Positions 15,387 through 64,000 of a stretch of DNA of 64,000 nucleotides are shown here, piece after piece (within the stretch, counting starts at the first letter, position 1; each line of letters opens with the position of its first letter). The stretch comes from Amphiscolops sp. MND2022 (taxonomy: Eukaryota): the NCBI GenBank assembly GCA_964187785.1, contig OZ076409.1:4404001-4468000 (forward strand), given 5' to 3'. The position numbers and the translations under genes were made by a program. The notes under the pieces were generated by a model. The model saw only the letters and a program-made list of their open reading frames with translations. It was not told the DNA's origin and searched no databases.

Positions 15387-18300
15387 ATGCCGTTTGATGA
15401 ACGGTCTTTCGACAACCCGTATCTCAACACGAAACCCCAAAGTTCCGATCCGAAGCACATTCTCACAGAAAAGGTGAAAAGTAGGATCCAGAAATTCATC
15501 CAGCAGATGCTTGGCGTCATCCGTGAGAGATTGAACGATGGTAGTATTTCCAGCAAAGACACCTCTGTCTACACTGGCTTATCTGGAATTGCGCTGACTC
15601 TGATCACGATCGAAGAGACCGGAATGTTAGGTGAAGACAGTGGTAAGAAAGGGTCTTCTTTCTTGTGCTTGAACTTTTACAAGTCGGAAAAATGTTTCGA
15701 CTACTTAAGCTAAGCACTTGTACCTTTTTTTCTCCCGACCTTTTAATAAAAATTCTAAATTTGTCGCAAACTGTCCATACGATTTTTACGGATATTTGAA
15801 ATATTAGCTCTGATAATCTTTTTGGCCAAACTGGCAACCAATCCTGGAAAATCATCTCGCACAACTTTTCATGTGATTCGGTTTCTGATTTTGCGAATGT
15901 CGAATATGTTTGTGCCAGAGTTTTGACATCGCTATTTTTTTCGCTAATTTCAAAATCGCTATTTCGCTGAAAAACTTTCGTCAAATTATTAATTGTTCGA
16001 ATTCAAGAATGTTCAAATATTAACATTAACTTGATTCAATTTTTGCAAGAAAAAAAAACAGATTTTTTAAAATACTGTGTGGGTTTTACAGAGAATTTTT
16101 TTACAGAGTTGAATATTTTTGAAATTCATTTTCAAACTCCGAGAAAATTTTGAATTTGGACAATCTATTAATAGCCGCTTATTTGAATCGCTAATAGAAT
16201 CGCTGAAAAAACTCCGTGTGGCCGCTAAGTCGCTAAATTGCTGATTAGCGGTGTCAAAACTCTGGATTGTACTGAGCTCTCTTTATCTGTAAAGAGCTAG
16301 CTCTTTATCTGCTAGTTTGGATGTTTTTTAAAACTAAAAGCACTCTAAATGGAAATGAAAGAAGATCCTTACCCCCCCCCCCTTAACCAGGTGGCGAACT
16401 TCTGTCTCTGGCTTATCTACTCACAAAAGGCAATCACTCCAGAAAATCCAGTTCATTCACTCTTCTCTGTGGCTCAGGGTTGGTCCGAGATAGTCTTGCA
16501 AAAAGTTGCAAGTTTTAACGTTTTTTCGTGATGGATCCAAGTTTAAGCCTCGGAAGTTTTTTTCGAATTTTGTATTCAAGTAATCCACTCATTGCAAAAT
16601 ATCACTCATAAGGTGGACTTTAACCCTAAATGGACGAGGAAATCTCAGAATGCATCCAAACCGCAATATCTCCTAAACTTTTCAAGTCCGACAAACGATT
16701 TATTGCGTGTTCAACAAAGATAACCAGGGCTTTCAAATTGATTTTTCAACTGCTGGGTTTTTGAACACTGGCTCCGGTTTTTGCTCCAAATGTTTGCATG
16801 CCTCGTGTTTCTGACTGCATTTCAGCATGTTTCAAAACATGCTAGGGCCACTTTGACCTAATCTTGATACCAGTGGGATAAAATGGCCACAAACGAAAAC
16901 TGGAAAAACGGAAAATCTGCGCTCATTTTTCTCTGATTTCTTGGTCCCGTTTTCTTGATTTTGGAGACATCAAGTCAATATTCCGTGAAAATGCATGCAA
17001 TGCTATGTTAGTTATATCGTCTGAAAACCTTATTTAAGAGTTTTCTTTAACCATAGGGTCAGCTGGTGCCTTCAGAAGTTTGCAAAAACTAACTGGTACG
17101 AAATCTTACCATCTTCCATTTAGGGTTGAAAAAGTCAAATCTGAGGTTCGTAGCATGCTTGCGTAGAATGGGAATTTGCCATATTTCGATAGTTTATTGT
17201 AGACAGGGTTGGCTGACTATAATAATTTTCAACATCAACAAGTTATTTGATCTTGAAATCAACAGCTTCTGACTTTCGCTCCGAGCACTCTACAATCGGA
17301 ACGCGTTCTCATCGCGTCAGACTTTTTCATTCGAATGGAAAAATAAAAATCAATTCGGAGTTGAAAAACCCAAAAACTAGTTTTCTAATCCATTTTTTGA
17401 ATTCATTACACAAAAATAGTCAGTTTTCTGCATGCTGATTTTTAGGAGTCGGAAAAATTTTCGGCTGCTTCTGCAATCGTACTTTTTCTCCTGACCTTTC
17501 AATGAAAATTTCAAATTGCTCAAACTGTCCATACGATTTCGTTAAAATTTTGCACAGCCATTCTATACGCAAAGGTGCACAATGTCATTAAAATCGTATG
17601 ACTGGCATTTGAGAAACGCTTTTTTTGGACTTTTTGATTATCACGGCAGCTTCACTGCCGAGTGACAACATCGCTTAATGAAAATGTTGCTTTTGAATCA
17701 TCGAAATTGGAGCTAAAATTTCCAAGGGTTGGTGCTTACATCTGCTGCACAGTGTACCTTTTATCGATCTTAAAGTTTAATACTTTTTAAACGAACAATT
17801 CCTGAACGGTAACATTGAAAACATCTATGGCACTGAAGGAACCGAATGAAACCCGAAAACCTTCAACAACAGGAAAAGTTGGCTTTTTGATGGTGCCACT
17901 TCAAAATTGTTTTTTTTTTGTTTTCCTTTTTTATATAAAGTAGAAGTATTAGGAAGTAACGAGTCGTGTACCGGCTGTACTTACAGAGAATATCGTAAAT
18001 AACGAATATACGGAAGGTTCGATGTACGACCGAACGCTGACCTATACTAATCAGAGTTTTGACACCGCCAATCAGCGAATTAGCGTCAGCGCAGAATTTT
18101 TTCAGCGATTCAAATTAGCGGCAACTAATAGATTGTCCAAATTCACAGTTTCCCCGGAAAATACATGGAACTTCAGAATAAATTTCGAAAAAATCAAACT
18201 CTTACACTTTTAAAACTCACACAGTATGAAAAATGTTTTTGCAAAAATTGAATAAAGTTATCATTACACTTGCGATAAGCAAGTGTTATGGGAAAGTGCG

Positions 18301-21300
18301 AGTTTTTTTTTCCGCGCGGCAACTCTCATTTCAGACCGCAAGTCGCATAATTCAGACTTTTTTGGTCTAGCGGTAAGATGCTTGCTTTTCAACCCATAGG
18401 GTCCGGGTTCGAACCCGCGCCTATGCGCTAGTTTTTTTTACAAGTTTTTCGAAGCATAAGATTCTCTTTTTTTCGACAATATGAGACAGACCCCCCCCCC
18501 CCTCTTCGAATTTTTCGAAAATTTTTTAATGTCCCCAAAGGGTCCTCCCTTAATTTTTTTGATATTTTGCAACAGAACGAATGTTAAAAAATTAAAAGGG
18601 TCTCTTCTTTCAGATTTTTCGGCACTATGAGACTGTTAAAAATTCGCATTTTTTTCGAAAGTTTTTCGATAAAAACACATTCGGTGTTTTTATATGCGAC
18701 TTTTTAAATTTTTTTTCATCGAAGTCCCCCCTCAATTTTTACCAAAAATGAAACGTTTTGCGACTGTAAAAGACTCGTCAAGGTTTTCGGCGCTTTGCGA
18801 CTTCAAAAAAATTGACGGTGACCTTCAAAAAATTTTTTCGAAAATATTTTGGAAAAATTTCGGAAAATTTTTGAAAAAATTCAAAAAATTTTTTCCTCCA
18901 ATTTTCTTTTTTTAAAGGTTTTCTGTTGAGGAAGATGGGTTTTTTGCTGTTTTCAGTTGAGGAAGAATGGTTTTCGAGACTTATGCCCATCCCTTCGGGT
19001 ATTTTTTGGCGCTGTAAAATTGATGAAATTTTAACATAGTCCTTTTACCCTTGGTTCTACGTATGATATTGCTTATTTGGTTTTCAAAAGTTCGCAAGTG
19101 TTTGCGAAGCACGGCCCCCGCCTCTGTGTTGAATTTTGAAACATACTTGAATTCAAACATTTACTATATTGAAGTAAAAGTTTTTCAGGGAAATAGCGAT
19201 TTTGAAATTAGCGGTTTAGCGATTAGCAAAAAGTCCAATAGCGATGTCAACGCTCTGATACTAATCAACCCCTGTGTACCTTCTTCAGCGGTGCTCTAGC
19301 CGTGGAAGCGATATCACGGCAGAAATTGGGAAAAGATAGTCGGGAACTTGTGAAGGAGATCATTGATTTGCATGAACACGTGGCCCACCAAGACCCAAGG
19401 ACGTTCGACGAGTTCCTTTACGGCCGAGTTGGTTACTTGGGAGTGTTCACGCTTCTCAACAAGTACTTCCCGGATCTGAAAGATGCCAAGTTGGAAGACA
19501 AAATATGCGATGCCATCATCAAAAGTGGCATGAAAGCAAGCAAGAAACACAATGCCAGTTAGTTTGATAACTTTTCATATTGAAATCCGGTTCTTTCTGC
19601 CGTTCAATTTTTTGTTCAATGACGACTCTTTATGTATTAAGACTTTATGTATTTAGACGACTCTTACAATTCTAAATACATAATTTGACGTGAAACTCGA
19701 GTATAGCAGCAGTAAAACTGAAACTGAACCTAATTAAAGGTGGCCTAAAAATAGGAATCCAGTGAAGCGTCTTGTTACCATAAAAACTGCTTACTCGGCT
19801 TAAATTATTTTCAAAAATTGACACTAGTGAGATTCGAACCCCGTTTTCATGCTCTAAGCCCGTAAGCCAATGCTCTAACCACTGGGACAACTGCCATATG
19901 ACAACCACAAAAACTTCAGCTTTTCGACAGTGACCCTTTGACTTTTTGACATTGTGACTCGAGGAAAAACTATGAAAGCTCAAAAAGTGCCTTTTCGTTT
20001 TATTAGAGAAAATCCCCCAACACGGAAGCACAGTTTATTCATGAAGAAAAATATTAAAGTGTTATTTATGAAGTTAAATACTTAGAGGATTGTCTCTACA
20101 GCTGTTTTGCAACTTCCAGCGAAACATGACCCTAATTTTTTGATATTATTGTACAAAATAGCAAAGATTCACGCTTTGCTGTATGAAAGCCCCTATTTCA
20201 TCAGTAATTTTACCCGTCATACAATTTAAGAAGCCACTTTTAACTGACAGTCATGGGTGTTAGGTTGGTTTATTATTATTTGTGCGATAAGCAGGAATAT
20301 TATTGAAACAGATGTCAACTTTTTTCAGTAAAATTCTCGTCGCGATACTGAATAATTCAGATTTTTTGTTCGGCAGTAACTGTAAGCGTGAGAATTAAAT
20401 TTCTCAAGCTGTCGACGACAATTCAATTCTCGTGCGATGGAACGAGTGAGTGGTAATTATGCATTCGTACGCTGACGTCATTGAGATGAAGCGAACGAAT
20501 ATTCTTAATTATGCTTTCGTACGCCGAGTTATTGAGATGAAGCGAATGAGTGTTAATTATTCGTTCGCCGAGAGGCTCGCCTGCATTCAAATGCGAATGC
20601 GAAACTTCGTCTACTTTTAGTAGTTATATTTGCTTTAGTCCGAGATTTAAATGCGGTATAAGCTGGTACAGTGATCAATTGAGTAGTTAAGATTTCCGCC
20701 GGCCTTTCAACGGGGGGGGGGGTCCTCGGTTTTCACGGGGTGGGTCCTTGCTCTGAAATTTTAGGACCTATCCCTAAAAGGAAGGGGTCCTTCCAAATTG
20801 GTGTTCGGAATTGATTCGGCTTTTGACTGCGAAAGTAAATTATTGGTCGGATTCTTTTTGTATTCGTTTTTTGGATTCTTTCTGTATTCGTTTTTGGAAT
20901 CGGATTTTTGCGAAAGTACATGTAAAAGCGTAGACACTCTTGTTTATTCTTTGAATGCCTGAAAGTTTGGAAAGTACTAACCTTGAAATTTTGTTGTAAT
21001 TGAATTGTAAAGCTGGATTGACTAATACTGGTACAACAACTAAGTCGGGTTGTAGTATTGTTGTGCCAAGCGATCGATCGGCCAATAAAAAGTAATCTAG
21101 TTTGTCGTATAATTCACACCAAAGTTTAATAGGGTACGAGAGGGTGTGAAATTTATGTACAGTTTTGTTCGAATGCATTATTCGTCTGATGTTACGAACG
21201 TGTTTTGATAAAAATTCATTATAAAGCAAATATCAGCAGCAGGAAGGAATGCTGAGAATCAAAATTGGAAATGGACCCCCAAAAAATAGACGTTGTAAAA

Positions 21301-56100: not shown

Positions 56101-58001
56101 TTCATTTAGAATGTTTCTGACACAAAAAAATATATCAAAGAATTCTAGACAATCTACAGAATCCGATGAATGTGAAATTTTTAGAAAAAGTTCCAAAAAC
56201 CTGCCCAAAACTGAGAAAATAACTAAAGGGTTCTTTCTGCGCCTGAGATTTCACTTAAGGAACTAGTTAAAATTGAAAGTGAGAGCAAATAAACAATGTT
56301 ATTTGGTTGATAACGACGCTCAGCGCTTAGTGGGACAATTCCTAATCACAGTACAGTATTGAGATTGAGAAATCACCTCCGGGTGATTTTAGGATCGATT
56401 CTCTCGAAATCAGTTGAAAATTTTGAAAGCATAACAAGTAAAAGTTTCTTCGAATTTCATCTAGTTTACATTAGTAATTTCTCAGACAAAAATCGAGAAT
56501 TACAAATAGCTGATTTTGAGAAAATTGGTGCTTTCTACCTTTTTTTTTCAATTTTTGGCCGTTTTTCTAAGTTTTTGGAAACTTTTGTGCTCAATTAACT
56601 CCCACAAATCTACTGAAGCCATGGATCTACTTTGATTCCGAAAATATCGACCGTTTTCGAAATATCGGCTCAAAGGATAAAAATTCTTCAATTTACATGG
56701 AGTTCACTTAATGCGCCGATCAAAATTGAAAGTGAGCGTAAATAAACAGTTTTAATTGGCAGAGAACGTCATAGGGCCTATATGGACGATTTCTCAATCA
56801 CAGTGCTAGTGCTGTGCTTCAATATTCGCCAGTTTTCCGAAGCAGCATTTTCGACAATTTGAATAACTGCAAGTTTTCTGGCTTGTTTTTGACGAGTTGG
56901 CCGGAAAGAGGAAGTGCGAAGAATTGAAGTTTCCACTTAAAACAAAATTTAGCGAAACAAAAAACATCAACCAAAAGTTCCAATGTTTCTCTCGAAAACC
57001 TAAAAAACCTTGTTAAATTTGACCAATTTCTTTTAATTTGAAGATGCTTTTGACATAATTTGTGAAAGACCCTGTCTTTCAGTCACCGCTCCTTATCGAT
57101 CACCGCGTGGTTGGTGGGGGCAGGGTTTTGACATCGCCAATTCTTTTGCTAATCGCTAAACCGCTAGTTTCAAAATCACTATTTCGCTCAAAAGCTTTTC
57201 TGCCAGCTGAACTATTAAATCTTTGTCTTGTAAAAGTATGTTTTAAAATTAAATATTAAGATTTTACAAAAAGTTATGGAACTCATGTATTCTCGAGGAA
57301 ATTTTGAAATTGGACAATTTATTAGTTGTCGCTAATTTGAATCACTGATAAAGTTCACCGCGGCTGCTAAATCGCTCATTAGCGGTGCGAAAACTGTTTC
57401 TCAACCTTTTTTTTGTGTCACAGGCTCGTGGTCCAATTTCAAAACATGGTAGGGCCACTTTGACCTAGTATTGATACCAGTGGGATAAAAAGGCCACAAA
57501 CGGAAACTGGGAAAACCGAAAATCTTCGCTGAATTTTTTTGCAATTTTTTGGCCCCGTTTTCTTGGTTTCGGAGACATCAAGTCAATATTCCGTGGAAAG
57601 GTGTGCAATGTTATATAATATCGTCTGAAAATCTTATTCAAGAGTTTTCTTCACCATACAGTCAGCTGGTGCATTCAGAAGTTTGCAGAAACTAACTGGT
57701 ACGAAATCGTACCATCGTCCATTTAGGGTTAAATTTGACTAATTTCTCACAATTTGAAGATAGTTTTGGCACATAATTTTTCAACCTTTTTTTCTGTCGC
57801 AGGTTCGTAGCCCAATTAGTGACCAAAGCTCAAGAGGTCGGCAATCGCAGTGGGGGCAAAGTGGCGATAGAAGACATTGTGTTTGTGCTTCGCAAGGACA
57901 GAGCCAAATTCGCCAGAGTTCGAGAACTTCTCACTGTGAACGACGAGCTGAAAAAAGCCAAAAAGGCCATCGCCGATTTCGACTCTATACCTGCTACGTA
58001 A
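44172..58001 (+). CDS. TAF13: TFIID subunit 13, join(44172-44374,44678-44896,57803-58001), 206 aa
   Basis: FAKEIRHMMYGLGD..PYKDSVDLVEQLV / EDIVFVLRKDRAKFARVRELLTVNDELKKAKKA matches the TAF13 histone fold; 621 nt, GT-AG, phases consistent. Confidence 0.92.
45203..49530 (-). mobile_element. Degenerate CR1-group (L2/Crack-like) LINE
   Basis: ORF1 fragment LESYNRRENIRIVGLPE; APE motifs GDMN, DHV, TDH; RT motifs KAPGFDG, NFRPISILP, QFGYR, FLDLSKAFDT, ADDT. Frameshifts, an internal RT deletion and a (TAA)n tail at about 45203-45220. 5' end approximate. Confidence 0.9.
50980..51588. mobile_element. MITE with GG termini and 8-bp TSD (Merlin- or Mutator-like) containing two palindromes
   Basis: TIR GGACCATGTGATCTATT...AATAGATCACATGGTCC; TSD AATGTTTC at 50972-50979 and 51589-51596. 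Confidence 0.8.
52076..54994. repeat. Three-copy tandem amplification (605, 1157 and 1157 bp)
   Basis: Units start ATTGTATTTTTTGTCCTGC at 52076, 52681 and 53838; copies 2 and 3 carry an extra inverted-repeat element (52918-53462, 54075-54619). Confidence 0.93.
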
Positions 58002-58335
58002 CAAAACGACGTCGCAGCTATGCTTTTACTTCTACTACTATCAGTCTCTTTCTACTCTGTATATCGTGTTACAACGTTTGCTGCTTGGCCATCTTACCAC
58101 AATGTACCATAATAATGTATATTGCTCAAATACAATGATGCAAACTTCTGACTGCACCATATCAAAAACTGCAAAAAGGATCTAATCTGAAGTCTAATCT
58201 GGTTTCGAAGCGGTCTAATTCTTCATTATTGTCGCCAGTTTCTCGAAAAGTCTTCGACTTTTGAAGCAACCAAGTTACGACAACACAACATAAGTTTGGA
58301 AACTCGTCCTGTTTTCAACGCATTGCTGGACCATA

Positions 58336-61300
58336 ATGTTTGTCATTAGTTCTTGGAGCATACACAGCAGGGTTTTGACATCGCTAATTTTTTTCGCTAA
58401 TCGTTGACTCGCTAATTCCAAATTCGCTATTTAGCTGAATTTTTTAACTATTGGATGTTTGACTTGAAGAATATTTTAAAATTGAATGATAACCTAATTT
58501 GTTTTTTTTTAAATAAAAAAAAGTGGAATGTTTCATACTGTGCGGGTTTTACAAGGGTAAGATTTGAGATATACATTAAAATTCTATTTGAAACTCTGTT
58601 TAGGATCCGAAGGAAATTTTGATTTTGGACCTTCTTTTAGTAGGCGCTGATTGAATCGCTTTTAAAATCGCTGAAAAATTACCGCGTGGCCGCTAAATCG
58701 CTAATGAGCGGTGTCAAAACTCTGATACAGAGCTTCTTTCTCTGCTTACTTCTCAACGTGGGCCATGTTGATGGAACCTCCTCCTCCTCCTCGAATACCC
58801 TGAAGTTGTCGGCTCTGAGGTTCTACGACCCTCCGCTGTCCGACCCAGATGGCATGACTATGGGACTTCTACAAGCTGCCTATATCGACACTGCTCAACC
58901 CACTAATGTGTCCAACTGGTTGCCTATTTGTGAACTCAGCTATACTGTAAGTCATTCAAAATGTTTTTATCATTATTTCTATGTAATTTTATTGTTATTT
59001 TCCACCCTCACAAATTTATTGCATTTTTTTCTTCCAAATTCTGTCAAAAGTCCACTTAGTGATAAAATCCATTCGATTTAGTCACGGTGGCCCAGTCAGT
59101 TGGTATGGCGTCCACCTGCCAGTCGGTAGGTCTTGGGTCCGAACCCGGGCTGGAGCCTGGAGTTTTTTGTGCTTTCCCAGGCAGTACGTCGCCTTCGCAA
59201 TACTTTTTTGCAATACGAGTGTTCGGAAAATGTCCGGGTGCTTAGCGGGCGTCTTGTTTTAGTATTTTTTACGTAAGCCGGGGCGTTATTGTAACGCGAT
59301 AAGTCAACCTTTTTAACATTTCTGCGGTAGCAGGAATATTATTGAAACCTCAACATGTTAACTTTTTTTTCAGTAAAATTTTTGTGATACTGAAAAATTC
59401 AGATATTTTATCCGGCAGTGAGTATAGGCGTGAGATTTAAACATCTCAAGCTGCCGACAACAATTCGTCTTTCGTGCGATGGAACGAGCGAGTGGTAATT
59501 ATGCATTCGTACGCCGAATTCATTGAGATAAAGCGAACGATTGTTCGTAATTATCAATTCCTACGCCGAGTCATTGAGATGAAGCGAACGAATGTTAATT
59601 ATTTGTTCGTTTAAAGCTTCGCCTGCATTCAAATGCGAATGCGAAACTTCATCTACGATTAGTAGTTATATTTGCTTTAGCCTGAGGTTTGAGGGCGGTA
59701 TAAACTGGTACAGTGATTAATTGTGCACTAAATAATGATTAAACAGGAGTGTATTGGTATTCCAGATATGATTCTATTTTTAATGAAAGATTAAAACAAA
59801 TTTGTTTAACGGGGCCTATTTTTTCAATCCAAAATATTGCTACGTTTGCGTTTTCTTAGTTTTTATTCTAACTGTCTTTAATTAAAAGACAGCAACGGGT
59901 CAAGATTATTTTTAACATGAAACTAACAAGGTATTCACTAATTTACCGCTCGCTGAGAGCTTCACCTGCATGCAAGTGAGAATGCAAAAGGTAAAATTAC
60001 CACTCACTGTGACAGGTAATAATCGAAGGTTTTGATGCTTCAAGTCAAAATTATCCAGTTTGCACTTTCGCAAAATTCAAAAATGAAAGCTCGAAAACTA
60101 TCATTTGTTTATAGTCAACCAGAGTTCATGTTTTAAAACAGGGTGTTTTAAAACAGTTTTCGTTTCTTTCTATTTTCGCAGACCTTTCACACCGTCGTCA
60201 GCTGGTCTGCAGAGGGTTTTTCCATCCATGGGTCATGAACATTCTGAAATTCGGAATAGACTGAAACCTGAGAAAGTCCGTAAACTGGCCTTTTGTTTGC
60301 ATTTGCTTGCTCAATTCAGCTTCATTTTCTGAGTGACAAAGAACTGAATTGTGATAATGGAGTGAATTGAGTTTTTAGCTCTCGAAGTCTGTTTAAAAAC
60401 GTTTTAAAGTATAATGAAAATAATTTTCACGTTTTAAAACCAACCCTGCCGGCAACTAAATAAGAAATCGATTGTTCTGGCTGAAAAAAAAACGGTTCTT
60501 TTCCCATCCCCCGAATAGCTTGAAGCTTTGAAGCAGGGATGGATATAAATCCGTTTTTTTTTATTCAAAAAATAATCTCAATCTGATTTTAATTTTAAAA
60601 ATCATTTATTTCTTTAAAATTTCATCTCTTAACTGAAAAACATATCAAAAACTAAATCTTGAAATTTGTATCTTGAAGATTTTCCAAATTGAAAACGTTG
60701 AAACAAAATAACGGTTTTGAAGCCTTCTCGGTACCTAATCGATTACGCTGATCATTATGTAGTCATCCAAATGAAAAGAACATTCGACGATCTGAAAATA
60801 TTTCATTGATTTTAATGAATTTTTGAAAAACTTGATTTTAATTAGGATTTTAATCAAACATCCTTGCAAGAGAAACGTTCAATTTTCAATTCAATTTCAA
60901 GGTGGCAGCTTCAGACTCAAAAACAAACTTTGTTCACACTTTCTCCCCTTATGAAGTCACGCATTAGAAAATCAACAAGTTCCTGTTTTGAGTCACAAAA
61001 AACAGTGAATACAACTGTAATTATAGTTAAAGTGTGTGAAAAATGTTTTGTTCAAATGAAAAACTATTTCAATAGAAATTCACTTTCCGTTACGGAGAGA
61101 TTCAACTTTTAATCAAGCCAATCTGAAAATTCATATCAAAAATTTTGACGGTGGGAGGAGGAGGACAGAAAAGAGCCAAGGTCCGTCCGTTTCAGGCTGC
61201 GGAAAGGGCATGTGACATGTTGTTACCCGCGACCTACGACATGTTCGTAGCTGGGTCAACCTCTGCTGCCTACGACATCGCGGGTGTGGCCATGTGCATT

Positions 61301-63407
61301 GACCTCGACTGTGACCCAGCCGTGACCTCCCTTGCCGACTGTGACCTCACTGTGTCTTTCGACCAGGCATGAGCAGCGATCCATAAAATAAGTCTGAAGG
61401 ACATTTTTAGTCGGCGCCTTTTCCCTTAAGGAAAAAAGCCCGACTCTTACAGTGAGTAGTTTTTTTTGTTTTTTTTTCAGTTGACAATCTCACTCTGAGT
61501 GGTCCACTTTTCTTACAATTTTTGTTCATCTTTCATATTTGTTCATCTTCCATCTTCGACCCAGCCGGAGAGCGTGGGTTCGATTCTCGCACTAAACCAT
61601 AAATTTTTTAATGCTTCCAAAAGTACAGGTGAGACCAAAGGGTCCCCCCTTTGGGTTTTTTTTCGGCACTATGCGATTTTTTTCGAAAATTTTCGAAATT
61701 TATCAAAGGGTACCCCCTTGAATTTTTTTGAAGTTTTCGGTTTGTAGAAAACGTTGAATGAGCCTGAATGGCCTCTTTTTGAGTTTTTCGGCATTGTGCG
61801 ACCTAAAAAATACTTTTTTTCGAAAAAAATCAAACTTTTTTTGAAAAATTTTTTTTCCAAATTTTTCCAATAGTTGTTCCTTGAATATTTTTGAGCCTAA
61901 GATAGGGCGCCGACTTGGGACGTTCCCGTCTTGTTTGATTCTGAATTACTATGTACCGTCTTGTGATTGCCATTTCCAATTCAAAAGTTTGCACGCCTCG
62001 TGTCTTCGAATACAATTCAATTTGTTTCTAAACATGCTAGGCCCACTTCGACCCTAGCGGGTGGGATAAAATGACCACAAACGGAACCAGGAAAAACCGG
62101 AAATCTCAATTTTTTCTCAATTTTTTGGTCCCAGTTTCTTGATTTCAGAGGCTTCAAGTCAATAATTTGTGTAAAGGCGTGTAATACTATGTAATATCGT
62201 CTGAAAATCTTATTCGAAAGTTTTCTTCACCATACGGTCAGCTTGTGCCTTCAGAAGTTTGCAAAAACTAATTGGTACAAAATCGTACCATCTTCCATTC
62301 AGGGTTAATTGCGATCAATGCTCTTTGAGACCTAATGATCTTGTATTTTTAACTTAATTTCTGTTTTATATATATCGATTTTGCTACATTTTTGAGAACT
62401 TGGGATCATTAGTGATGATAATTCATGCTATTCGGTTTTATTGTTTTTCTTCGATATAATGCCAAGTCAGCAGTGTAGTATCGTGCTCAATTCTGATTGG
62501 CTGATCGACTGGCAGACGATGGTGAGTTACGTCATCTGTCTGGACAAGCCCTCGAACAGGGACTGTTGGATCACGGACTCAACCATGCCCCAGTACTGCG
62601 TGGACCCCCACTACTACTACGTGCAGGGAGAGGTGTACACCTACGGGCTGCTCGCCCTCGTCGTAAGTACCACCAAACAAGCCGTGGAACGGCCCAAGTT
62701 GGCGCCATATCTATGGCTCAAAAATAGCAAAAGCATTTCAAAGTGTTAAGTATTCTCTTCAACAGTACCCGAAAAGGACCCTTTGGGATTTTTAACATCT
62801 GTGGCAAAACATAAAAAAATTGAAGGGGGCCCTTTGGTGAGAAGAATTTCGGAAAAAAGTCTCACAATGCCGAAAAAACCGAAAGGGGGACCCTTTAGTC
62901 TCGCTCGGTATTGTATGTTGCGCGTAAAAAGAACTAATTTTATATTTCAGTTCCTTGTGCCAAATGGTCCAATTTGGCACCTTGAAGTTTCGTATAACTT
63001 TGTAGAACTATTTTGGTCGGTTCGCGTGGATCGAAAAAATAAGAGTCGCTAAATATAATAGTCGCGTTTCACTTCATGAAGCGCCGACTGAAAATGGGGG
63101 TTTCAGATGACGATTTCATGATTAGGTTCAAAGTACTTCCCCTCTTTTCTCACTGTAAGAGTCGGGCATCTTTTTTTCACAAAACGCGCCGACTAAAAAA
63201 GTAGAGAAAAAATATGTATAGGTCACTACATTGCACTGAAATCATGATGACGCAATGTTCCAGGTGGGAGGTCTGATTGTGGTGATGTTCGGCCTGCTGT
63301 TCGCAGATGCCCTGAGAATCACCAGTCAGCGCAGAGAGGAGTCGTCTGGCAAGGGAGGAGAAACGCTGGTCGGCATGAACAAAAAGGCACCCTCCGTCCT
63401 CTGCTGA
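58336..63407 (+). CDS. Type I membrane protein with divergent SRCR-like domain, join(58336-58371,58731-58946,61196-61366,62471 or 62474 or 62516-62662,63264-63407)
   Basis: GC-rich phase-0 exons. Signal-like FFLCLLLNVGHVDG; LRF..GLLQ..WLPIC..AAERAC..L..LDC...SLADC..YVIC; TM segment YGLLALVVGGLIVVMFGLLFA. The first exon and exon-4 acceptor are less certain. Confidence 0.7.
58368..58724. mobile_element. hAT-type MITE forming the first intron of the membrane-protein gene
   Basis: TIR CAGGGTTTTGACA...TGTCAAAACTCTG; 8-bp TSD ATACACAG/ATACAGAG. Confidence 0.8.
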
Positions 63408-63412
63408 TTGCG

Positions 63413-63509
63413 TCACTATGACGTCATACTTCCTCTGATCACTATGACGTCATACTTCCTCTGATCACTATGACGTCATTCTTTGTCTGATCACTATGAC
63501 GTCATACTT
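63413..63509. repeat. 26-bp tandem repeat x4, each with a TGACGTCA palindrome
   Basis: TGACGTCA at 63419, 63445, 63471 and 63497. Confidence 0.93.
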
Positions 63510-64000
63510 TGACATGACCTTCGCTATTGGTCGAACTCTACAAAAGTTGTCACGGCTGTGAATATGTGTCACGGATGTCACATGGGTTTGACACACAGTA
63601 TTTATTTCGGAACAACGAACCGCACTCAAATAAGAGAAAAAAGTTGTTTTGCCAAATTAACGTGTACTGGAAATCAGACTTGACTCCACTAATTAGCGCG
63701 GAATTTTTAAGCAAAATTTATTAGCGATTCAAATTAACGGCAACTAATGAACTATCTAAATTCAAAATTTTCTCAGAAAATGCACGGAGTTTCGAAATGA
63801 ATTTCGGAAAAAACCCAACTCTTACACTTGTAAAAATTAGCATAATATACAAGTCAAAACCATGTTGGAAATCAATATAAAATACAATTCTGCACTAAAA
63901 TGTCTGAAATGCCAATATGCCGACTGAATTGTTTTTGGCCAATTGACTTTTGAACGCTTTCCGACTTTTTTATCGACTCAATTCAGAAATTAAAGCTGCT

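Follow-up and report, generated by a model that had tools for sequence, protein, structure and literature searches.

A hAT-type MITE at the start of a predicted acoel membrane-protein gene: a candidate start codon and a possible intron at one insertion

Transposable element sequence that has been exapted as a first coding exon, and that gives start codons and N-termini to host proteins, is a general phenomenon. Splicing of an inserted element is another known outcome, and waxy and adh1 of maize are reportedly the classic cases for the Ds element. Ds and Ds1, which belong to the hAT superfamily, tend to supply donor and acceptor sites near their terminal regions (PMC5395267, available text). 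In the introners of Micromonas, Aureococcus, dinoflagellates and other groups, a coding exon contains a short element with terminal inverted repeats (TIRs) and target-site duplications (TSDs) (Gozashti et al. 2022, PMC9860276, available text). One splice site comes from the element and the other from the duplicated target, the copies are mostly introns with good splice signals, and the message is usually unchanged by their removal. The available part of PMC11282704 describes introners as scarless in geometry, and the accessible survey results of PMC9860276 place them in only two animal groups. Here, we have analysed a stretch of 64,000 nucleotides (nt) of the acoel Amphiscolops sp. MND2022, hereafter the window (assembly GCA_964187785.1, contig OZ076409.1, positions 4,404,001 to 4,468,000 of the forward strand), in which a hAT-type miniature inverted-repeat transposable element (MITE) at 58368-58724 interrupts the start of a gene predicted to encode a type-I membrane protein. 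The DNA is animal and has 37.7% G+C; the assembly holds 1,066,832,074 bases in 1929 contigs.

By analogy, the closest known behaviour would be the splicing of Ds and Ds1 through near-terminal sites. Like Ac/Ds of maize, the MITE belongs to the hAT superfamily, makes an 8-bp duplication and has CAG-type ends; the donor proposed for it lies a few bases inside the terminus, and its removal would be inexact yet in frame. Unlike in maize, the host is an acoel, the insertion is old, apparently fixed and known from sequence alone, and a start codon within the MITE offers a route that is free of splicing. The locus shares with introners a short TIR/TSD element in a coding exon and a proposed pair of splice sites of which one comes from the element and the other from the duplicated target. 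It differs from them in that the proposed sites are of background strength, the removal would add 6 nt, and only 1-2 of 84 copies lie in plausible coding sequence. As in transposon-derived start codons, an ATG of the MITE reads out via the element end and would replace about 10 N-terminal residues; unlike in the established cases, its use is here only predicted. A literature search for introners in acoels found nothing relevant, and the available text of PMC12130899 makes no mention of hAT, acoel or MITE. We regard the locus as a well-defined test case and not as a result.

The element and its insertion site

The sequence at 58368-58724 is a MITE of the hAT superfamily, as its 8-bp TSD, target preference, short TIRs, small size and copy number show. 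The TIR arms are 22 nt each and 86% complementary, and the left arm has no difference from the family consensus. The two TSD copies, ATACACAG and ATACAGAG, agree at seven of eight positions and, written as ATACA(C/G)AG, fit nTnnnnAn, the target preference of hAT elements. An earlier model-made annotation of this DNA, which we call the sequence-only reading, had described a hAT MITE with TIRs and a one-mismatch TSD, and we found the same. Its remark that the CAG of the right TSD copy is absent from the left one is correct as far as register goes; CAG is nevertheless present at the last three bases of the left copy. Only short stop-to-stop frames overlap the MITE. It differs from the consensus of 22 other copies at 49 of 346 aligned positions, and, with gaps counted, its divergence of 18.8%, against a mean of 11.8% in 35 other copies, indicates that it is an old copy of an old family.

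The MITE sits 24 nt past the ATG at 58336, within the start of the part coding for the signal peptide. When the element and the left duplicate are excised exactly, a single open frame is obtained (MFVISSWSIQSFFLCLLLNVGHVDG...; MFVISSWSIQSFFLC...), which reproduces the continuous signal-peptide frame of the sequence-only reading; the unspliced frame from 58336 ends after 23 codons. Two orthologous proteins were available for comparison, namely P0003 of Convolutriloba macropyga (RefSeq XP_075255949.1, 60% identity) and P0005 of Symsagittifera roscoffensis (XP_063728312.1, found by a word search with P0003). Both have about 13 residues before the aligned hydrophobic core, where the excised frame gives 10, and in both the N-terminus is continuous, the comparison being one of protein sequences. 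The S. roscoffensis N-terminus FYISS resembles FVISS of the host gene, and that of C. macropyga has no similarity to the excised host N-terminus. Since the FYISS/FVISS match is equalled or bettered in score by 45 of the 1180 ATG-led 10-mers of the window and by 618 of 5000 shuffles, we count it as modest and not as strong evidence.

A TAF13-like gene on the same strand ends at 58001, and the 335 nt between its stop codon and the old ATG could scarcely hold another first exon together with an older intron. The MITE was probably inserted into first-exon coding sequence. The alternative is that it merely lies within an older intron, in which case the acceptor at 58730 would predate the MITE and MFVISSWSI would be a chance open reading frame (ORF). 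We estimate that an ATG-led open frame would precede the junction by chance in about a fifth to a quarter of cases. Against this, the promoter, the first exon and the intron would all have to fit into those 335 nt, the resemblance to the S. roscoffensis N-terminus is one that only the 45 window peptides match, and an ancestral n-region of 10 residues suits the length seen in both orthologues. We consider an older intron very unlikely.

A start codon within the right terminal repeat

The right TIR contains an ATG at 58704 that is in frame with exon 2 and is the sole ATG, in any frame, in 58529-58730. Translation from it gives MSGVKTLIQ-SFFLCLLLNVGHVDG..., with no stop before exon 2; the protein would have 234 amino acids (aa), next to 226 aa in P0003 and 237 aa in P0005, and a normal-looking signal peptide. 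This ATG had been overlooked in the sequence-only reading, and the signal peptide that follows from it is equally good without splicing. An in-frame ATG makes splicing unnecessary, and a start codon within the MITE is at least as good an explanation of the locus as an intron. Our tentative preference is that translation now begins at ATG 58704.

We suggest the following course of events. An old non-autonomous hAT MITE would have inserted into the host coding sequence, 24 nt from its start, and the gene would have stayed intact, with ATG 58704 reading through the target duplication into exon 2. The N-terminus MFVISSWSIQ would thereby have been replaced by MSGVKTLIQ, while the hydrophobic core and the cleavage region would have remained unchanged. 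The old start codon and most of the MITE would then lie in the 5' leader, or would be removed before translation. If ATG 58704 is used, the locus would be a clean case of a transposon end that gives a secreted protein a new N-terminus.

The G of ATG 58704 is specific to this copy; the consensus reads ATT, and the G is found in none of the 22 aligned copies. Two public ORF calls on ENA contigs, P0006 and P0007, begin at ATG 58704. Their contigs carry the MITE, one assembly being 98% identical and one identical, and the calls are uninformative on splicing because they are plain ORFs that continue into intron 2. Among 38 other copies of the family (39 loci minus one duplicate), 15 have an ATG whose frame is open to the right end. 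In most of these 15 it is the consensus ATG 63 nt from the end, which is in the same frame as ATG 58704 at 21 nt. Readout through the right end from an internal ATG is therefore native to the family, and an insertion in the right phase could swap an N-terminus at once.

The leader could be built in three ways. Transcription might start inside the MITE, the transcript might be spliced to the strong internal acceptor at 58640, or a spliced leader might be trans-spliced to that acceptor. The family consensus at 58629-58640 reads CATTCTATTAG, and two purines have become pyrimidines in the present copy (CCTTCTTTTAG), a gain that is suggestive and was noticed after the fact. The acceptor lies 63 nt 5' of ATG 58704, and a leader joined at 58641 would make 58704 the first AUG. 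Spliced-leader trans-splicing is given for 30.2% of S. roscoffensis genes in the available text of PMC9911081. The 32-nt S. roscoffensis leader has 2378 sites in the Amphiscolops genome with up to three mismatches, at least 100 of them exact, and none in the control; these sites are candidates for leader RNA genes, retrocopies or a leader-carrying repeat. At the two leader loci that were read, L022 and L026, a hairpin and a T-run follow the leader. Between the TAF13 stop and the MITE there is no AATAAA or ATTAAA, only the variant AATACA at 58129, and the first canonical polyadenylation-type signals past the stop, at 58512 (AATAAA) and 58575, lie inside the MITE. The two genes share a strand and are separated by 335 nt, which would be compatible with trans-splicing of the pair.

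Several observations weigh against initiation at 58704. An in-frame, outward-open ATG that is the only one within the last 195 nt is found in 11 of the 38 other copies, and since random copies share the pattern, we rejected the idea that ATG 58704 and its ATG-free leader are a trace of selection. With transcription from the old promoter and no part of the transcript removed, the leader would carry ATGs at 58336, 58455, 58486 and 58528 ahead of 58704, and these would hamper initiation there. The base at -3 of ATG 58704 is C, and the old ATG at 58336 has A. The consensus ATG at 63 nt has been lost in this copy, so that two steps would be needed. No GT directly follows the leader at L022 and L026, so that these are only putative leader genes. 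Finally, despite the 49 differences from the consensus, nothing has disrupted the old ATG, its 12 open codons, the GT or the AG, as the intron model predicts.

Splicing at the ends of the element and the behaviour of its family

In the intron model, translation would start at 58336 and 58372-58730 would be spliced as a 359-nt phase-0 intron, with its GT in the left TIR and its AG in the right TSD copy. The join of 58371 to 58731 gives MFVISSWSIHSRSFFLCLL... (MFVISSWSIHSRSFFLC...), a protein two residues longer than the pre-insertion one, exactly as the sequence-only reading had proposed; the geometry is in frame and the protein would have 237 aa. Besides the intact sites and the A at -3 of the old ATG, the model is favoured by the first 30 columns of the MITE, which have no mismatch to the consensus (5.6% in other copies), and by branch-point-like CTAAT repeats about 26 nt upstream of the AG. 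The other acceptors of the host gene are likewise just 55-60% pyrimidine, and the near-terminal splice sites of Ds and Ds1 offer a precedent (PMC5395267, available text).

The splice signals themselves speak against the model. Donors were scored as matches to CAG/GTAAGT (the slash marks the exon-intron boundary) over nine positions, with A at -3 and G at +3 allowed. The proposed donor, AGG/GTTTTG, scores 4 of 9, a score that 70% of the 3483 GT sites of the window reach or exceed, whereas the other donors of the host gene score 7 (ACT/GTAAGT), 6 and 6. Its positions +3 to +6 show no improvement despite the age of the MITE, and pyrimidines make up 50% of the 20 nt that precede the AG, where the background averages 49%. 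Inside the MITE, a donor at 58557 (7 of 9, a score that 117 of the 3483 GT sites attain) and the acceptor at 58640 would compete with the proposed sites, and an AATAAA at 58512 would fall within the intron. The proposed donor is also buried in an 18-bp TIR stem in the centroid fold of 58336-58760. The removal would be inexact, with 6 nt added, where introners have competent sites and leave the coding sequence intact, and ATG 58704 makes splicing unnecessary. Of the 58 perfect TSDs in the family, 21 contain an AG at some position; on that basis an in-frame GT...AG pair is expected by chance in about one in eight exonic insertions.

Splicing of the MITE as an intron is possible, with predicted signals at background level, and we hold the 359-nt intron to be on the unlikely side. 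Of the original proposal of a MITE-made intron, the insertion into first-exon coding sequence has stood up, and the splice sites and the 6 added nt tell against the rest. If splicing is nevertheless true, a common transposon would have given an animal lineage a new intron whose gain can be dated, and even poor splice signals at transposon ends would be enough to keep a gene alive.

Other canonical introns can be drawn. A donor within ATGTTT/GTCATT (58342) joined to 58730 is in frame and would give MF-SFFLC..., and a 5' untranslated-region intron from AAT/GTTTGT (58338) to 58640 would take out the old ATG together with every other upstream one, so that 58704 became the first AUG. The first donor scores 4 of 9; the second intron would pair a 6-of-9 donor with an acceptor tract unsurpassed in the region. 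All these donors are weak, however, and MF-SFF... would be nearly without the n-region of a signal peptide, so that we find such a splice distinctly improbable.

The least probable of the routes considered here is an exact, non-canonical removal of the MITE and one duplication, guided by pairing of the inverted repeats. We know of no such pairing-guided excision system in acoels. The TIR stem is present in the centroid fold, and such a mechanism has been described for MITE-derived introns in Fritillaria and for the nonconventional introns of euglenids (PMC11282704, available text). The whole segment, however, folds no more stably than its shuffles (z = 0.04), and other exonic copies show no consistent geometry.

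How the family behaves bears on whether its members are introns in general. With up to three mismatches allowed, the window contains 8 instances of the 18-nt end motif where 0.07 would be expected, among them the sister copies at 15916, 18052 and 57121 by which the sequence-only reading had confirmed the family; when the whole element is the query, 10 more stretches of 69-82% identity appear in the window. The genome-wide search yielded 2834 candidates, of which 40 were scored and gave 42 matches including the element itself, the near-full-length copies among these scored candidates being 74-78% identical. The 22-nt left end has 1112 genome sites with at most one mismatch, against 0 in the reversed control. 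Perfect 8-bp TSDs flank 21 of the 38 other copies, and 7 more have TSDs that match at seven of eight positions. Among all copies fetched, 58 have a perfect 8-bp TSD; the median length is 358 bp, and these TSDs have T at position 2 in 83% and A at position 7 in 60%. The copy at 18052-19257 is 1206 bp long and carries an unrelated insert of about 900 bp; its TSD, ATACTAAT, is still perfect, as had been noted before.

We then excised 84 copies with clear ends in silico, each with one duplication (29 of the 38 copies above and 55 of 95 taken in genome order from the left-end sites, the other 40 having failed the right-end or duplication criteria). ORFs were counted if they had at least 20 codons on each side of the junction, and positions 250 nt from the junction served as controls. 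ORFs of at least 100 codons cross 9 of 84 excised junctions and 21 of 168 control positions, and ORFs of at least 150 codons cross 5 of 84 and 6 of 168. A long ORF over the junction was rejected as a sign of an exonic copy, being no commoner than at controls. Members of an introner family would be introns of many unrelated genes, a pattern that these junctions do not show, the count being one of ORFs across junctions and not a direct one of intronic copies whose ends coincide with splice sites. Because believable coding sequence hosts only the one or two copies, the family is an ordinary abundant MITE family and not an introner family, and the suggestion that it may be generating introns is not borne out.

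Among the excised copies, Pfam supports coding sequence only at the locus of L033 (G000:C2:2154248-2155600) and L034 (G000:C2:2150940-2152292), with L039 doubtful. L033 and L034 are 3.3 kb apart, and their flanks are identical where read. The MITE, oriented as at 58368, interrupts a B-box zinc finger at profile position 34 of 42 (PF00643; E 1.5e-4, which does not reach the Pfam cut-off), and once the element is excised, the ORF extends without a stop over 200 codons. The finger is not preserved by any in-frame GT...AG or GC...AG pair close to the element ends. Either this is a family member that has been disrupted, or splicing is needed here too. For the long ORFs at L154, L147, L145 and L139, Pfam gives nothing significant (best E 0.034), and the impression of a glyoxalase-II-like exon flanking L145 found no support.

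At L039 (G000:C1:8634432-8635792), the MITE lies within a serine- and acid-rich ORF of 185 codons that has no Pfam match. Its perfect TSD, CGCAAAGG, permits a scarless 369-nt GC-AG intron, AAG/GCAGGG ... AAAG/G. That this intron and the 359-nt intron, the latter perhaps aided by TIR pairing, are both real is doubtful, and a little less likely than the 359-nt intron by itself. If both are real, they would be the first documented transposon-made intron gains in Xenacoelomorpha, and their source would be an ordinary hAT MITE family and not a specialised introner.

The host gene and its neighbourhood

Table 1. Positions in the window of the MITE, the host gene and nearby features
Feature	Position	Strand	Remarks
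TAF13-like gene, last coding exon and stop codon	57777-58001	+	Pfam PF02269, E 5.7e-16
Ancestral start and first 8 codons	58336-58359	+	MFVISSWS; in frame with exon 2 after exact excision
Left TSD	58360-58367	.	ATACACAG
hAT-type MITE	58368-58724	+	357 bp, no long ORF; identified by TIRs and family copies
Left TIR	58368-58389	+	CAGGGTTTTGACATCGCTAATT; contains the proposed donor GT at 58372-58373
Donor-like site	58557-58562	+	AGG/GTAAGA, 7 of 9 consensus matches; in family consensus
Acceptor-like site	58629-58640	+	CCTTCTTTTAG/; pyrimidine fraction 0.75, top 8% of AG sites
Right TIR	58703-58724	+	inverted-repeat match to left arm
ATG in frame with exon 2	58704-58706	+	in right TIR; gives MSGVKTLIQ-SFFLCLLL...; use predicted
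Right TSD	58725-58732	.	ATACAGAG; proposed acceptor AG at 58729-58730
Exon 2	58731-58946	+	predicted signal-peptide hydrophobic core and start of ectodomain; donor ACT/GTAAGT; aligns to P0003, P0005
Exon 3	61196-61366	+	aligns to P0001, P0003, P0005; followed by GC donor CAG/GCATGA
Exon 4	62516-62662	+	predicted part of cysteine-rich ectodomain; HMMER matches P0001 to P0003
Exon 5	63264-63407	+	predicted transmembrane helix, short tail, stop; placed by alignment

The host gene has five exons (Table 1), and its full coding sequence, of the length given above for each model, has one terminal stop. Exon 2 ends at 58946, a correction of the earlier reading, as the GT sits at 58947. The product is predicted from its sequence to be a type-I membrane protein with a signal peptide, a cysteine-rich ectodomain, one membrane helix and a short tail. 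A comparison of the four downstream exons with Pfam found no family. A HMMER scan with exon 4 gave four proteins at E <=0.001, three of which are relatives: P0003, P0001 (145 aa, 92% identity, on a 1037-nt Logan contig) and P0002 (162 aa, 86% identity, on a 344-kb ENA contig). No relatives of exon 2 were found among longer proteins, and a metagenome scan with P0001 gave 68 pattern matches, none of them confirmed. In the source genome, P0005 matches the host gene alone, at 37-52% identity, and exon 2 matches only itself, which indicates that the gene is single-copy; neither a paralogue nor a retrocopy, which might have preserved a spliced form, was found there.

P0001 is the sole transcript-like relative, and it starts at a Met inside exon 3. 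This would suit a further reading, in which the 5' end of the host gene is broken, no signal-peptide protein is made, and the gene is a young pseudogene or gives a truncated product; every rescue route described above needs a weak signal or an extra assumption. On the other hand, no stop interrupts the four downstream exons, which when joined give a complete coding sequence, those that align to P0001 are 90%, 92% and 78% identical to this close relative, and a dead gene should show damage, since the MITE insertion is old. A broken 5' end is in our view unlikely, though not negligible. The outcomes other than a start at ATG 58704 and the proposed intron, all taken together, are about as probable as that intron.

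Intron 3 (61367-62515) has the GC donor given in Table 1 and an AG acceptor, and was placed from the join of exons 3 and 4 in P0001. The ORF call of P0002, which comes from a genomic contig of a close relative, runs from exon 3 through exon 4 into intron 4 unbroken. Because exon 3 is read straight into exon 4, intron 3 is seemingly absent from that genome, and it seems to be either a recent gain in the Amphiscolops genome or a loss in the genome of P0002. The 359-nt intron, if real, would lie in a gene that also seems to differ between close relatives in the presence of another, GC-AG intron.

We rejected the possibility that intron 3 is a single transposon, as its ends are unique sequence with two nested repeats within. 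The repeat at 61404-61936 is a member of a very young family (about 533 bp, copies 96-98% identical, more than 5500 candidates). That at 61982-62308 belongs to an older family of about 327 bp (78-81% identical, more than 2600 candidates), which is also found in the window at 57437-57732 and 16787-17127. A tRNA-like stretch at 59080-59160 was discarded, as ARAGORN finds no tRNA in it. Just past the stop codon of the host gene, at 63400-63510, the unit CACTATGACGTCATAC(TT) is repeated about four times in tandem and includes the palindrome TGACGTCA.

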